Origin: Haliangiales bacterium
GTDB taxonomy: Bacteria > Myxococcota_A > Polyangia > Haliangiales > Haliangiaceae
Length of the DNA: 15,568 bases
Reading direction: 5' to 3'
Assembly (NCBI GenBank): GCA_038325805.1
Contig: JBBQJJ010000189.1
Coordinates: forward strand, 1 to 15,568
A program made the position numbers and the translations under genes. Below are positions 6,954 through 10,243 of this stretch, in pieces. The notes beneath the pieces were generated by a model. It did not search any database and was not told the origin of the DNA. It saw only the letters and a list, made by a program, of their open reading frames with translations. The first letter of the stretch is position 1. The number at the start of each line of letters is the position of its first letter.

Positions 6954-8525
6954 TCACCCGTCGCGAGTGTGTGGGAGGTGCTCGAAGTCCAGACCGAAGC
7001 GCGCGAGGTACTTGCGCAGGCGGTCGGCGTCGTTCTTGGACGTCCGGCCGGCGAGCGAGCTCGCGAACAGCGCGCGGCCCGCGGCGGAGAGTGAGGCTGC
7101 GTTGCGACACACGGCGACGACGTCCGCCAGCTGCACGCGATCGAAGCGATCGAGCTCGCGATCACCGAGCAGGCCTTCCAGTCCATCGTGGTCGGCCCGT
7201 GCGGCATCGAGCCGCGCGATCTCGTTGGCGACGATCGCCTGATCGATCCGGCCACCCTCCGAGAGCGTGGCCATCCTGCGCAACGCGGCGTTGAAGTCGC
7301 GGAAGTTCGCCGGCCATGGCGCGGCCTCGGAGAACCGGACGAAGGCATCGCGCGCAAGCTTCGCGAACGAGATGCGTGCTCCGAGCTCGGCAGAGAGTCG
7401 CTCGAGCTCGTAGTCGAGGTTGGGCACCACATCCTCGGGTCGTTCGCGCAGCGCCGGGATCCGGAACGTCCACAGCGCGAGACGCGCGAGCAGATCTTCG
7501 CGGAACCGCCCTGCCCTGACGTCGGCGGCGAGATCGCGATTGGTGCCGGCGACGAGCTGGAAGTCCGAGCTCACGAGCTTGTCGGCGCCGAGCGGATAGA
7601 ACCGCTTCTCCTCGATCGCGGTCAGCAGCATCGCCTGCTCGTCACGTCCGAGCTCGCCGATCTCGTCGAGGAACACCAGCCCCTTGTCGGCCTTGCGGAG
7701 CAGCCCGGTGCGCGCCTCGGCGGCGCCGGTGAACGCACCCTTGACGTGACCGAACAGCATCGACATCGCGAGATCGCCGCGCAGCGTGGCGCAGTTGACC
7801 GCGACCAGCTCGCCGGCGAGGTGCTGCCGCGCCTGCTTGAGCTCGTGGATGCGCCGCGCGAGTGCCGTCTTGCCGGTGCCGGTCTCGCCGACCAGCAGCA
7901 GCGGATCCTTGGACTTGCTCGCGACCTGCTCGAGCTCGTCGATCATCGCGTTGAACCGGGGATTCTTCGTCGGGATGCCCTGCTTGAGCAGCGACGTTCC
8001 AGTCCGCGTGCGCTCGCGAAACCGCGCGGCGAGCCGGTCGTAGCGCGCGAGCTCGAGATCGATGACCTCCAGCTTGCCGGCGGTCGTGCGCTTGTCGATC
8101 GGACCCGGTGACGACTGCAGGAGCACGCTTGGCATCGCGCGGGTCTCGCACAGGAGGAACAGGCAGATCTGGACGACGTGCGTCCCGGTCGTGATGTGGA
8201 GGAAGTACTCCTCGGTCGCGGGCTTCCATGGATAGGCCTGTGCGAAGTCGTCGAGGGCCGCGTAGACCTCGCCGAAGTCCCACGGGTTCGCGAGGGCGAG
8301 GACGTGCGGTCGAACCTCCGTCGCGGGAGACTCGCGTGCGATGTCGGCGATCACCTGGGTCGTCAGCGGCTCGCTGTTGGCTTGCACGATCAGCTCGAAG
8401 CGATCGACGTGAAACTCCGGCTGCTGGCAGATCGCGACGCTCGGTCGCCACTTCTCCCAGCGCTTGTCGCGCAGGCCGGCATCGAGGGTGGAGCCAAGAA
8501 GGCCGATCACGACGCGCTTCTTCAT
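6954..8525 (-). CDS. rtcR: Sigma-54-dependent transcriptional activator RtcR (CARF domain + AAA+ + HTH)
   Basis: The N-terminus MKKRVVIGLLGSTLDAGLRDKRWEKWRPSVAICQQ matches the CARF N-terminus of E. coli RtcR (MRKTVAFGFVGTVLDYAGRGSQRWSKWRPT). GETGTGKTALARRIHELKQARQ is Walker A, GAFTGA is the sigma-54 contact motif, and the C-terminal NDADRLRKYLARFGL is identical in character to E. coli RtcR. ATG 8525 overlaps the upstream gene's stop (ATGA). Confidence 0.92.
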   Translation of the reverse strand: MKKRVVIGLLGSTLDAGLRDKRWEKWRPSVAICQQPEFHVDRFELIVQANSEPLTTQVIADIARESPATEVRPHVLALANPWDFGEVYAALDDFAQAYPWKPATEEYFLHITTGTHVVQICLFLLCETRAMPSVLLQSSPGPIDKRTTAGKLEVIDLELARYDRLAARFRERTRTGTSLLKQGIPTKNPRFNAMIDELEQVASKSKDPLLLVGETGTGKTALARRIHELKQARQHLAGELVAVNCATLRGDLAMSMLFGHVKGAFTGAAEARTGLLRKADKGLVFLDEIGELGRDEQAMLLTAIEEKRFYPLGADKLVSSDFQLVAGTNRDLAADVRAGRFREDLLARLALWTFRIPALRERPEDVVPNLDYELERLSAELGARISFAKLARDAFVRFSEAAPWPANFRDFNAALRRMATLSEGGRIDQAIVANEIARLDAARADHDGLEGLLGDRELDRFDRVQLADVVAVCRNAASLSAAGRALFASSLAGRTSKNDADRLRKYLARFGLDFEHLPHTRDG

Positions 8526-8905
8526 GACGCCCTGTGGCCTGCCAACGCCTCACCAACGACCGCGATCGAGCGCAGCAGCGCCGTGAGCTCGTGCGATTGG
8601 ACGAGCAGGTGATCGATCAAGCCGTCTTCGCAGATCGGAGCGGGCGCGCCAGACCACGCCTTGCCACGTTTCGCGAGTAGCTCGCGCCCACGCAACGCGG
8701 CGAGCGGCTGGGGATCGGTCGCCGCGACCGCGTGCTCGAGCTGGACCCCGTGCGGACTTGTGCTGGAGATCACCCGGTCGCACCCCACTCGGACGAGCTC
8801 GCCTTGGAGCGCGATCCACGCCTCGCGCGGATCGGCGGCTTGCAGCGCATCGGCGGAGACCGGCTCGGTGATCACCGCGTGGTGGGCCCGCCAATCGATC
8901 GTCAT
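8522..8905 (-). CDS. Hypothetical protein (127 aa), translationally coupled between the LRR gene and rtcR
   Basis: ATG 8905..8903 overlaps the TGA stop (8904..8902) of the LRR gene, and its own TGA (8524..8522) overlaps the rtcR ATG (8525..8523). GC3 is ~85% by hand count. It is hidden as the C-terminal 127 aa of a 510-aa track ORF whose upstream part is an out-of-frame overlap of the LRR gene. No recognisable motif; a faint roadblock/LC7-like pattern is speculative. Confidence 0.6.
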   Translation of the reverse strand: MTIDWRAHHAVITEPVSADALQAADPREAWIALQGELVRVGCDRVISSTSPHGVQLEHAVAATDPQPLAALRGRELLAKRGKAWSGAPAPICEDGLIDHLLVQSHELTALLRSIAVVGEALAGHRAS

Positions 8906-10179
8906 CGAGGCACCGGACCATGCACCTGCGTGCCCGGCAGGTTGGCGCGGAGCGCGTCGAGGCCGCTCGGCGACAGCTTCGTGCCATCGAGCTCCAGCAC
9001 GCGCAGGTTCGAGGCAGTCGACAAGCCCGCGACGCTGCGATCGGTGATCGGATTGTCGCGAAGATCGAGGTGCCGCAGCTGGTGCCGGAGCGGCGATGAC
9101 AGCAGCGGCGCGAGCGTCTCGTCGAAGGCGACGCAACCGCGCAACCGCAGATGCGTGAGGGATGCGAGCCCGCCGCCGACGAACAGCTGCGGCAGGCTCC
9201 GCTCGAACGCCGTGTGACTGACATCGAGAAGCTGCAGCGCCGGCAGGTTGCCACCGATCGCACGAGCCACGTCTTCCAATGTTCCCATCGGACGGTCGAC
9301 GTACCGCACCGGCGGGACGAACAGCCGCAACACGCGCAAGGCGCGGAGTGACGGAGCGACCGCCGCGAACTGGGCGCGGGTCTGGTCGAGCTCGAGGATC
9401 TCGAGGCGATCGGCCGCCGGATGGAGCTCGGCGGTGTTGGCCGCCCGCAGCGACAAGTGCCGGAGTCGCGGCGCGGTCTCGCACAACCGCCGCACGAGAT
9501 CGGGCGCGGGCCGCGCGAGTTCGATGGCCTCTAGCCGAGGCACTACCGCGGGAGGAAAGCTCCACTCGAATTCGCGATCGGTGGAGTCGTCGCCCGGAGA
9601 CAGCGCGCACAGGCGAGGAAGCTCGCTCAACCACCGTGCGAGCGCAGCGCGATCTGGGACTGGTCCCGAGAGCACGATCCGGAGCTGCTTGACCTGTCGC
9701 ATCCGTGGTTCGGCCATCAACTCGGCGCCGTTCGTCGATAACTCGACCTCCAACGACTCGAGCAGCGGTGCGCGATCGAACAGCACCGCCGGATCTCGTA
9801 GCTGGTACGCGTCGACGTGCGCGACGAAGCCGCGCTTGATCCCACAACCTTCGGGCAGGCCGACGGTCCAGGTGTCGGAGTGATCGGTCAGCAAGCGCCT
9901 CTCCATCTCCCGGAGCTCGTCGAGGCGGTTGGAGTCGCAGGTCGCAAACACGTCCGCCATCCAGTCTCGATCGGCGAGGTGATCGCCGTGCGACTCGCGG
10001 TCGAGCCCTCTTGCGAGACGAGTGAGCTCGCATCCAAGTCGCGCGAGCTCGCATTGCACGGCGATCAGATCACCACGCGGATCGCCGGCGGCCTGCAGCG
10101 CATCCGCGAGCACGAGACGCGGTTCGTCGGCGTCCATGTCCTCGACGACCGCGCGGTAGAGTGCGGGCCAGTCCGTCAT
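8902..10179 (-). CDS. TIGR02996 (repeat-companion domain) + RNI-type leucine-rich-repeat protein (~425 aa)
   Basis: The N-terminus MTDWPALYRAVVEDMDADEPRLVLADALQAAGDPRGDLIAVQCELARL matches the TIGR02996 signature (..DDAPRLVYADWLEE.GDPRGEFI.LQ.EL). The C-terminal repeats LRHLDLRDNPITDRSVAGLSTASNLRVLELDGTKL fit the RNI-like LxxLxLxxNxIxD pattern. ATG 10179 is preferred; an alternative GTG lies at 10212. Confidence 0.8.
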   Translation of the reverse strand: MTDWPALYRAVVEDMDADEPRLVLADALQAAGDPRGDLIAVQCELARLGCELTRLARGLDRESHGDHLADRDWMADVFATCDSNRLDELREMERRLLTDHSDTWTVGLPEGCGIKRGFVAHVDAYQLRDPAVLFDRAPLLESLEVELSTNGAELMAEPRMRQVKQLRIVLSGPVPDRAALARWLSELPRLCALSPGDDSTDREFEWSFPPAVVPRLEAIELARPAPDLVRRLCETAPRLRHLSLRAANTAELHPAADRLEILELDQTRAQFAAVAPSLRALRVLRLFVPPVRYVDRPMGTLEDVARAIGGNLPALQLLDVSHTAFERSLPQLFVGGGLASLTHLRLRGCVAFDETLAPLLSSPLRHQLRHLDLRDNPITDRSVAGLSTASNLRVLELDGTKLSPSGLDALRANLPGTQVHGPVPR

Positions 10180-10210
10180 GACTGGTTTTTTGGCCTCGGG
10201 TCGTGACCGC

Positions 10211-10243
10211 ACAGAGGTGCGCGGGAGGCGACCAGACCTCTGT
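10211..10243. promoter_or_regulatory. 8-bp inverted repeat acagaggt-N17-acctctgt in the rtcB / LRR-operon divergent region; candidate enhancer (UAS) or 5'-UTR hairpin
   Basis: Perfect 8-bp arms seen directly. It lies 20-50 bp upstream of sigma-54 candidate 1 and ~130-145 bp upstream of candidate 2, and 32 nt upstream of the LRR-gene ATG on the other strand. Confidence 0.4.

Follow-up and report, generated by a model that had tools for sequence, protein, structure and literature searches.

Introduction

In the canonical rtcR/rtcBA locus of E. coli and Salmonella, RtcR combines a CARF-like N-terminal domain with a sigma54 AAA+ domain, and its monocistronic gene lies beside a control region with a sigma54 promoter and upstream boxes, from which rtcB is transcribed divergently. 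How RtcR is switched and which proteins it contacts are still being worked out; the known regulatory inputs are damaged tRNA, as damaged tRNA halves, and RtcA and RtcB, which bind to the CARF domain (PMC7790460, PMC9650030).

Here we describe a variant of this locus on a 15,568-nucleotide stretch of DNA from a Haliangiales bacterium (hereafter, the window). RtcR has the canonical architecture, and a divergent rtcB, a predicted sigma54 promoter and upstream boxes can likewise be recognised; however, rtcR is placed behind a gene for a leucine-rich repeat (LRR) protein of the TIGR02996 family and a gene remnant, rtcA is absent, and a gene for a major-vault-protein homologue lies downstream of rtcB. 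Among the proteins that regulate sigma54 activators in trans are PspA, HrpV and NifL, which act on PspF, HrpS and NifA, respectively. By analogy, the window may resemble these systems in having a separately encoded, co-transcribed protein beside an enhancer-binding protein (bEBP), although the LRR protein is unrelated in sequence and fold to PspA, HrpV and NifL, and RtcR, unlike the sensor-less PspF and HrpS, has its own CARF sensor. Myxococcota and Planctomycetota encode thousands of TIGR02996-LRR proteins, a family on which a literature search returned no paper.

Results

The rtcR gene (6954..8525, minus strand) is the last of its unit. Along its whole length, the encoded protein matches the equivalog model NF038308 with 714.4 bits (cutoff 650), with the CARF-type RtcR N-terminal domain (PF06956) at residues 2-183 (E = 3.7e-72), Sigma54_activat (PF00158) at residues 186-352 with GAFTGA at residue 263, and a C-terminal region. 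Transcribed in the opposite direction, the RNA ligase gene rtcB (10378..11598, plus strand) heads an operon whose second gene encodes the major-vault-protein homologue (11624..14215, plus strand); a literature search returned no paper connecting vaults or the major vault protein with RtcB. A putative sigma54 promoter of rtcB, CTGGTCCATGAGCTGCA (10346..10362, plus strand; GG-N10-GC), is conserved in relatives and lies 16 nt ahead of the rtcB ATG, and two TATC-N6/7-GATA-type boxes, TATCTTGCAGGATAA and TATCCTCTCAGATAC (10270..10304), form a candidate RtcR upstream activating sequence. The box pair is conserved in 14 loci and is common to all loci of the clade described below, so that the divergent, predicted sigma54-type rtcB promoter with upstream sites that marks an RtcR locus is present here. 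Facing the LRR/rtcR unit is a sigma70-like promoter match, ATGACG-18-TATGAT (10313..10342, minus strand), the sole one within positions 6800-10500, and an inverted repeat, CAGAGGT...ACCTCTG (10212..10242), lies in an extra leader of ~85 nt that is present only in the window. Searching the whole window with Rfam (E<=1) and ARAGORN gave no Y RNA, tRNA-like or other RNA.

The first gene of the unit (8902..10179, minus strand) is intact and encodes a 425-aa protein that is a regular member of the TIGR02996 LRR proteins (NCBIfam 'rpt_mate_G_obs'), with an N-terminal domain followed by LRRs. Its TIGR02996 domain at residues 5-46 scores 36.2 bits (cutoff 29.05), matches to LRR_4, LRR_6 and LRR_8 exceed their cutoffs, and the segment LRHLDLRDNPITD conforms to LxxLxLxxNxIxD. 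An AF2 model (pLDDT 87.8) predicts a three-helix N-domain, a long helix, a beta-hairpin and a solenoid of ~11 strand-helix repeats. The first-pass annotation, which gave 8522-10212 for the genes ahead of rtcR, was right about the TIGR02996 and LRR identity; the start, however, has to be moved, because homologues begin MTDW..., which places it at ATG 10179 and not at GTG 10212, which bounds the ORF. With an omega of 0.27-0.51, compared to 0.14-0.34 for rtcR, the intact LRR protein appears to be under purifying selection, and it is probably cytoplasmic. The top fold matches of the model, the F-box-LRR proteins COI1, TIR1 and Skp2, likewise place their LRRs behind a small N-terminal three-helix domain, but at low TM and high rmsd, the likeness being one of overall layout; to our knowledge, SCF machinery is absent from bacteria. 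Since the Foldseek matches are all generic LRR proteins, the fold search does not support a specific function, and a PDB profile search with the N-terminal TIGR02996 module gave no match below E = 0.7.

Read on the minus strand, the TGA of the LRR ORF (8904..8902) overlaps the ATG of a small ORF (8905..8903), whose own TGA (8524..8522) overlaps the rtcR ATG (8525..8523), confirming both ATGA stop/start overlaps reported previously. Such 4-nt overlaps are the commonest junction type in compact operons. They occur at nearly every junction of the LRR arrays described below in independent assemblies (L081, L082, L086, L087, L089 and L001), and are thus an inherited property of the array, and neither a coincidence nor an assembly artefact. 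Between the LRR gene, the small ORF and rtcR, no terminator-like or promoter-like site was found. With overlapping codons and no such site between genes, the unit has the sequence hallmarks of a translationally coupled operon; because of the missing terminators and promoters, we infer that all three are co-transcribed from the promoter region beside the boxes, with ribosomes probably arriving at rtcR via termination-reinitiation at the two AUGA junctions. Of the three-gene operon that had been suggested, a tight co-directional unit with a TIGR02996-LRR gene first and rtcR at its 3' end stands, whereas the middle ORF is a paralogue fragment and the trio is not conserved in relatives.

This middle ORF (8522..8905, minus strand; 127 aa), which has an ATGA overlap at each end, is not a new protein but what is left of the 5' part of a third TIGR02996-LRR paralogue (type-D, P0011-type). 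Compared pairwise, it matches the N-module of the neighbouring LRR protein with E = 3e-7 and 38% identity. A word-indexed homologue search returned only the ORF itself, exact look-ups of the ORF and of the window's RtcR found nothing on record, and an exhaustive search returned LRR-family proteins together with three long repetitive proteins, which we took as compositional noise. The intact counterpart, starting MTIDWRALHEAIV..., occupies the equivalent position in L081; relative to L085, the remnant has lost ~0.9 kb, with homology stopping near residue 140 of P0011 and all LRRs deleted. A deletion of 7-8 residues has removed DxDxPRL, the G, C and RGF positions, almost invariant in the family, are gone, and NCBIfam and Pfam gave no match at E<=0.01. 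Given clear family homology but neither a model match nor the invariant residues, the ORF is a degenerate derivative of the family and not a full member. The remnant branch has an omega of 0.7-0.8, with 1 falling inside the bootstrap interval, compared to 0.07-0.66, mostly <=0.5, on intact branches, and the predicted model has a pLDDT of 52 and a pTM of 0.31 (pLDDT 88 for the intact LRR protein). No orthologue is present: L001 has a frameshifted 72-aa piece, and L082, L083, L085 and L090 have none. What had been taken as an independent protein is thus a truncated, near-neutral paralogue fragment without an orthologue of its own, which in spirit is the outcome, a lack of homologues and of coding constraint, that had been named as speaking against that view. 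As debris, it should not go forward as a candidate partner, and it may serve at most as an open relay ORF for ribosomes.

Two further interpretations of this region were rejected. The small-ORF frame extends as a 510-aa ORF (8522-10054), but upstream of 8905 it consists of Arg-rich off-frame noise, which also speaks against a frameshift or fusion between the LRR gene and the small ORF; in addition, the two are paralogous heads, not a head and a tail.

In approximately ten related metagenomic loci, 1-3 tandem LRR paralogues separate rtcR from the rtcB/rtcR control region. Immediately ahead of rtcR, LRR genes are found in L001, L082, L083/84, L085/86, L087/88, L089, L090 and L091; in L081 and L092, whose contigs break off before rtcR is reached, they adjoin rtcB. 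The adjacency therefore recurs in relatives, where its complete absence would have counted against the proposed association; the three-gene arrangement as such does not, as the number of LRR genes in relatives ranges from 0 to 3, and remnants may be present or absent. Deletion remnants are found in three loci, all three being open up to the next start codon, and every LRR-bearing locus has kept at least one intact LRR copy. While the rtcR-clade members hold a fixed position upstream of rtcR, unlike other TIGR02996 LRR proteins, the proposal of rtcR as a fixed partner of the family as a whole does not hold, with no TIGR02996 gene within 10 kb of rtcR in any of the 78 other RtcR loci (L002-L080) and only 3/80 metagenomic family loci located at rtcR, most members being nowhere near a bEBP.

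In neighbour-joining trees on single proteins, with all genomes being uncultured MAGs or metagenome contigs, RtcR from the LRR-bearing loci forms a clade together with L002 and L003 in 188/200 bootstrap replicates. These two loci are nested inside the LRR-bearing clade (198-199/200; LRR-only clade, 0/200), have no LRR gene, and their rtcR abuts the boxes again, indicating that Rtc regulation does not require the LRR protein. The rtcR of L087, whose apparent identity of 32-39% is due to frameshifts in the contig, was left out of the trees. LRR proteins at the rtcR locus form one clade, apart from other family members, and the first LRR start codon occupies the place, beside the boxes, of the rtcR ATG in relatives without an LRR gene. 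The LRR-rtcR linkage is real but narrow, belonging to one small clade of uncultured myxobacteria, and its distribution fits one gain, then birth-and-death and clean losses.

A second conserved pairing of an LRR gene with a sigma54 activator, in Gemmataceae, was an unexpected finding that lends partial support to the first-pass annotation. There, genes for MlaD, a 300-aa protein, a TIGR02996-LRR protein and a bEBP that, like PspF and HrpS, has no sensor domain occur together in 5/6 Gemmataceae-type loci, the LRR protein being 36-76% and the flanking proteins 70-92% identical; searched alone, this LRR protein has 1053 relatives. Co-directional placement next to a bEBP gene is thus seen in more than one lineage (Kofleriaceae, ~10 loci; Gemmataceae, 5/6), and the Gemmataceae pair suggests that some family members may work with enhancer-binding proteins. 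Among 77 other family loci, adjacency to a non-RtcR bEBP was found in 2 independent cases, which does not clearly exceed the ~0.5-0.8 roughly expected.

Discussion

The explanation that we favour, with a probability of roughly one half, combines an insertion, turnover of the resulting array, co-transcription with rtcR and an accessory role of the LRR protein. A TIGR02996-LRR gene apparently inserted once, in a Kofleriaceae-like sub-clade of Myxococcota, between the rtcR start and the shared control region, and then duplicated in tandem to give at least four paralogue types. Birth and death of copies have left 1-3 intact genes, remnants in three loci and two nested lineages with clean losses, the window representing one intact type-A gene with the 127-aa remnant of a type-D gene. 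More tentatively, at somewhat less than even odds, the LRR protein could be a non-essential accessory that tunes RtcR activity by binding the enhancer-binding protein, or something that RtcR senses, through its comparatively conserved concave face. We propose this role mainly because of the parallel conserved operon of an LRR gene and a sensor-less sigma54 activator in Gemmataceae.

A serious competitor, though on balance the less probable, is that the array is a neutral hitch-hiker: a member of a large and growing paralogous family inserted into the rtcR leader, is unconnected with RtcR or RNA repair, and persists since imprecise deletion would sever rtcR from its promoter and start site. Confinement of the array to a narrow clade, its absence from 78 other RtcR loci, two clean losses, variable copy number with decaying remnants in three loci, and the location of most family members elsewhere are in line with such an origin, as is an LRR-gene omega that is relaxed relative to the neighbouring genes. 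Moreover, the CARF domain does not evolve faster in lineages that carry LRR genes than in those that lack them; the RtcR CARF/AAA+ divergence ratio is alike in the two groups (2.37 with LRR genes, 2.28 without), giving no signal of co-evolution. Neutrality is nevertheless at odds with the retention of at least one intact copy per LRR-bearing locus at an omega of 0.27-0.51, with the openness of all three remnants up to the next start codon, with the independent conserved LRR-to-bEBP operon in another phylum, and with the concave face, whose residues vary less than those elsewhere in the LRR domain (0.37 vs 0.49).

The same face bears on a reading of the LRR proteins as guards that bind and neutralise RNase toxins in the manner of mammalian ribonuclease inhibitor and are co-expressed with an RNA-damage sensor, in a prevention-plus-repair island, which we regard as very improbable. 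Immunity-gene arrays consist of tandem, fast-changing paralogues, which the LRR arrays may resemble, the genes lie beside rtcB and rtcR, and ribonuclease inhibitor complexes are among the Foldseek matches of the full model (1a4y_A, TM 0.48; 4peq_D), in keeping with a predicted LRR solenoid shared with the mammalian inhibitor. That similarity is generic (TM 0.44-0.48, 19% identity), however, and matches to COI1/TIR1, internalins, NLRs and TLRs are equally strong, at 12-19% identity; the C-terminal repeats are 24-27 residues long and not the inhibitor's alternating 28/29, and the mammalian protein has no N-terminal TIGR02996 module. A test for diversifying selection at the concave face, the inhibitor's RNase-binding side, gave the opposite of the hypervariability that an arms race predicts, and no toxin gene was found in the window or the related loci. 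The RNase-inhibitor-like partner suggested initially thus goes back to generic LRR fold similarity, and the repeats are not of the inhibitor type.

Equally improbable is that the 127-aa ORF is a functional, LRR-less TIGR02996 adaptor, such as a decoy or a bridge that links the LRR protein to the CARF domain of RtcR, for although it is open with coding-like GC periodicity (0.74/0.51/0.82), coupled at both ends and retains part of the three-helix N-domain, it has lost near-invariant family residues, evolves at near-neutral omega, has a low-confidence predicted model and finds no orthologue, its counterpart in L081 being an intact gene.

An Rtc locus variant with LRR genes ahead of rtcR is new, and it illustrates that what looks like a 'three-protein operon' can be a momentary state in the birth and death of genes. 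The rtcR-linked array does not amount to a fixed three-protein machine, but it gives a new, if modest, clue to an uncharacterised family. Even if limited to one clade, a co-transcribed LRR protein would represent a novel type of RtcR input, and two independent conserved pairings with sigma54 activators provide a concrete, cheaply testable hypothesis for the TIGR02996-LRR family. At its broadest, which we consider unlikely but worth stating, a subset of these proteins would constitute an unrecognised class of trans-acting partner subunits of sigma54 enhancer-binding proteins, with the LRR binding surface gating RtcR in Kofleriaceae and, in Gemmataceae, an activator that resembles PspF in having no sensor. 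If true, this would be the first function for a large orphan family, and the Rtc RNA-repair response would gain an input at the protein level.

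Organization of the rtcR-bearing unit

On the minus strand of the window, a complete NCBI contig of 15,568 nt with a G+C content of 64–71%, a gene for a TIGR02996-domain protein with LRRs (8902–10179, profile matches above cutoffs) is followed by a 127-codon ORF (ATG 8905..8903 to TGA 8524..8522) and by rtcR (6954–8525; NF038308, 714 bits against a cutoff of 650), whose product reaches its best identity, 92%, with Kofleriaceae-like Myxococcota MAGs. The LRR gene ends in TGA 8904..8902 and rtcR begins with ATG 8525..8523; when read on the minus strand, both junctions are ATGA stop/start overlaps, exactly as the first-pass annotation had claimed. 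The start of the LRR gene was placed at ATG 10179 because homologues begin MTDW.... A 510-codon ORF in the frame of the small ORF was rejected as Arg-rich off-frame noise upstream of 8905. We detected no terminator-like or sigma70-like sites between the three genes, and the sole promoter-like match within 6800–10500 (10342→10313) is directed at them.

Elsewhere in the window, a UbiB/ABC1 ORF (736 aa) and a DUF885 ORF (825 aa) have 5' ends (4735–5600 and 2228–3000, respectively) that are 270–290 codons longer than the calls in relatives (~452 aa and ~565 aa), and in L085 and L087, two loci of LRR-protein homologues, the site of the UbiB extension is occupied on the other strand by a called ferritin/rubrerythrin gene; the true starts of both window genes are therefore probably internal. 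The opposite-strand ORF at 5054–5569 of the window had no match in a Pfam scan.

A paralogue remnant ahead of rtcR

The 127-aa ORF, initially regarded as an unknown protein, is the debris of a decayed TIGR02996-LRR paralogue. Over residues 1–43 it matches the N-terminal end of the adjacent LRR protein (E = 3e-7), and the whole ORF is 38% identical to the first ~150 residues of that protein. When 5.8 billion proteins were searched through a word index, only the ORF itself was returned, and the only further matches in an exhaustive HMMER search (1.84 billion representatives) were the full-length TIGR02996-LRR proteins P0011 and P0043, whose alignment spans residues 16–112. At the equivalent position of the closely related locus L081, an ORF beginning MTIDWRALHEAIVADPDSDEPRLVYADALQ... 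has an intact P0011-type head and lies 3' of an LRR orthologue 85% identical to that of the window, with the ATGA overlap likewise present. L085 has a complete P0011-type gene, and a DNA comparison with it shows ~420 nt of initial homology, then a gap of ~0.9 kb and then the rtcR start.

Of the nearly invariant DxDxPRL segment, the ORF lacks 7–8 residues; GDP is without its G and QCEL without its C, and the RGF motif is absent. In a three-taxon decomposition, the remnant branch has a dN of 0.32–0.48 and an omega of 0.7–0.8 with bootstrap intervals that include 1, compared to a dN of 0.02–0.11 and an omega of 0.07–0.66 on the branches of intact paralogues. An AlphaFold2 (AF2) model of the ORF, with the family alignment as input, reached a pLDDT of 52 and a pTM of 0.31; the equivalent module of the intact LRR protein (residues 1–50) has a pLDDT of 93–98. 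The ORF retains a coding-like GC periodicity, which fits a recent truncation.

Other remnants of LRR genes were found in two related loci. In L001, from the closest GTDB relative, a 72-codon ORF between the LRR gene and rtcR (1188–1406), with ATGA and GTGA overlaps, combines a TIGR02996 core divided between two reading frames (a frameshifted head) with a native C-terminal ...PNTEI tail. In L086, a clean in-frame deletion has cut a P0008/P0006-type gene down to a mini-ORF (1064–1285) by joining head to tail, the first 30 residues to the last ~40. The stop codon of each remnant still overlaps the start codon of the gene that follows. All three remnants, including that of the window, are open as far as the next start codon, for which the chance under random frames is ~1 in 27, hinting, with n = 3, that it matters to keep ribosomes translating toward rtcR.

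Distribution and history of LRR genes at rtcR

We scanned 80 RtcR loci from GTDB species representatives with the window proteins and an HMM of the 140-residue N-module. A TIGR02996 gene was found near rtcR only in L001 (RtcR 92% identical); in L002–L004 and L006–L009 (73–86% identical), rtcR abuts the control region, divergent from rtcB-MVP (MVP, major-vault-protein homologue), and none of 64 more distant RtcR loci has a TIGR02996 gene within 10 kb of rtcR. Further members of the family are scattered near rtcR in L001, as shown by another, longer ORF ~9 kb downstream of it (10662–12308, plus strand), whose N-module match is TIGR02996-like (E = 2.6e-10).

Additional cases were found via homologues of the LRR protein and their contigs. 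A single LRR gene precedes rtcR, divergent from rtcB-MVP, in L082 (protein P0004, 56% identical) and L083/84 (P0005, 49% identical); a 73-aa remnant and P0011 precede it in L085/86, three LRR genes in L087/88 and at least two in L089, while L081 has three LRR genes on a contig that stops short of rtcR. Scanning metagenomes with the family alignment brought in L090, L091 and L092, and none of the remaining 77 family loci from that scan is at an rtcR. In L087, rtcR (12350–13335) is called in two pieces of only 32–39% identity on a contig whose rtcB is 98.8% identical to that of the window, reflecting either frameshift errors of assembly or an rtcR decaying behind a three-gene LRR array. Of the three-gene operon originally proposed, the LRR-rtcR association is real and lineage-restricted; the full unit is not conserved, since LRR genes vary in number from one to three, the remnants differ, and L002–L004 and L006–L009 have no LRR gene.

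In neighbour-joining (NJ) bootstraps of RtcR, the LRR-bearing loci grouped with L002 and L003 in 188/200 replicates, L002 was sister to the core in 198/200 and L003 fell within {L083, L090, L003} in 199/200; a clade of LRR-bearing loci alone was never recovered. The LRR proteins at rtcR loci form one clade of at least four paralogue types, apart from other family members. The simplest reading is that the gene was inserted once and duplicated in tandem, that its copies decayed differentially, and that the array was cleanly lost twice.

When the intergenic regions were aligned, all loci were seen to share two boxes of the TATC-N6/7-GATA type (10270–10304 in the window), a candidate RtcR upstream activating sequence, and a sigma54 promoter (GG-N10-GC, 10346–10362 in the window), 16 nt before rtcB. 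Where LRR genes are absent, the start codon of rtcR abuts the first box; where they are present, that of the first LRR gene occupies this position. Only in the window does the LRR leader include a further ~85 nt, with no counterpart in related loci; this stretch contains a hairpin (10212–10242; perfect 7-bp inverted repeat CAGAGGT...ACCTCTG, 17-nt loop). The LRR gene, the remnant and rtcR would be co-transcribed from the region beside the boxes, and ribosomes would pass from gene to gene at the two AUGA junctions. Autoregulation is possible, as RtcR attached to the boxes would sit on the leader of its own operon.

A vault-protein gene beside rtcB

On the plus strand, rtcB (10378–11598, profile match) is followed after 25 nt by a gene for an 863-aa MVP homologue (11624–14215; MVP_shoulder 4.9e-22, Vault_3 2.9e-10), behind the sigma54 promoter. 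The rtcB-MVP pair is conserved across the clade (window, L002–L004, L006–L009, L082–L088, L092), and no rtcA was found in any of these loci. Bacterial MVP homologues have been reported (PMC3762200); our literature search found no paper linking them with RtcB or RtcR. Its parallel to the Ro/Y-RNA genes of the Salmonella rtc operon and to eukaryotic vault RNPs may merit separate study. In L005, an MVP homologue (7361–11560) is directly divergent from rtcR and the 21-kb locus has no rtcB match; this lineage may have lost rtcB or carry it elsewhere.

LRR-sigma54 activator pairings elsewhere

A sigma54-type AAA+ gene is immediately adjacent in 3 of the 77 other family loci. In L098 (839–3032) and L111 (1017–4206), a TIGR02996-LRR gene comes after the gene of a ~300-aa protein, which matches sigma70 region 4 weakly, and before that of a 353-aa activator; the activator has Sigma54_activat, AAA lid and HTH_8 only, and is sensor-less. 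In known cases such as PspF and HrpS, sensor-less activators are under the control of a separate protein. We examined four diverged homologues of this LRR protein (49, 47, 44 and 36% identity): the order MlaD, 300-aa protein, LRR, sensor-less activator is present in three of their loci, and in the fourth (L170/L171) the 300-aa and LRR genes are kept and an RNase T on the other strand replaces the activator. In all, L098, L111, L172 (2629–7119), L174 (1959–6231) and the contig of P0055 carry this conserved Gemmataceae-type cluster. Between loci, the LRR protein is 36–76% identical, the 300-aa protein 70–91% and the activator 74–92%; divergence is thus far faster in the LRR protein than in its neighbours, the same pattern as at rtcR.

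The pairing is independent, conserved and in another phylum, and we regard it as a lead. Chance would place roughly 0.5–0.8 such adjacencies in 77 loci, so that by count alone the two independent cases do not reach significance; conservation of the pairing across LRR divergence is the stronger argument. At L115 (5420–7258), a TIGR02996-domain gene lies ~70 nt behind that of an NtrC-type response-regulator sigma54 activator on the same strand, a third adjacency of TIGR02996 to an enhancer-binding protein, with the gene order reversed.

Possible role of the intact LRR protein

The anatomy of the unit, its distribution and the decay of its middle ORF are direct observations. By analogy with the pairings elsewhere, we propose as the likeliest reading, with a probability of roughly 0.4, that the intact LRR protein binds a conserved partner and tunes the activator. 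The LRR gene might instead be a neutral passenger without function in RtcR regulation, which we consider only somewhat less probable. Pairwise omega is 0.27–0.51 for the LRR gene versus 0.14–0.34 for rtcR, and between loci the LRR proteins are 35–85% identical, compared to 80–99% for RtcR, RtcB, MVP and UbiB; the CARF/AAA+ divergence ratio of RtcR does not differ between loci with and without LRR genes. Among orthologues, exposed LRR-strand positions are less variable than the remaining LRR domain (0.37 vs 0.49), so that the rapid divergence appears to reflect a loosening of constraint outside the canonical binding face rather than an arms race at that face.

The AF2 model of the intact protein (pLDDT 87.8) has a three-helix N-domain that a disordered linker joins to a long helix, with a beta-hairpin and then ~11 LRRs behind it; no relative of the N-module was found in the PDB by sequence. 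Foldseek returned generic LRR proteins only (COI1/TIR1, Leptospira LRRs, ribonuclease inhibitor, NLRs, internalins and TLRs; TM 0.3–0.5, 12–19% identity), and with ribonuclease inhibitor one among these fold matches, the RNase-inhibitor analogy drawn at first lacks specific support and a role as RNase guard is very improbable.

The LRR-rtcR array, binding and tuning by its intact LRR protein being the proposed function, is a variant of the known Rtc locus not described before, restricted to one lineage, and offers a first functional lead, though a weak one, for the TIGR02996 family.
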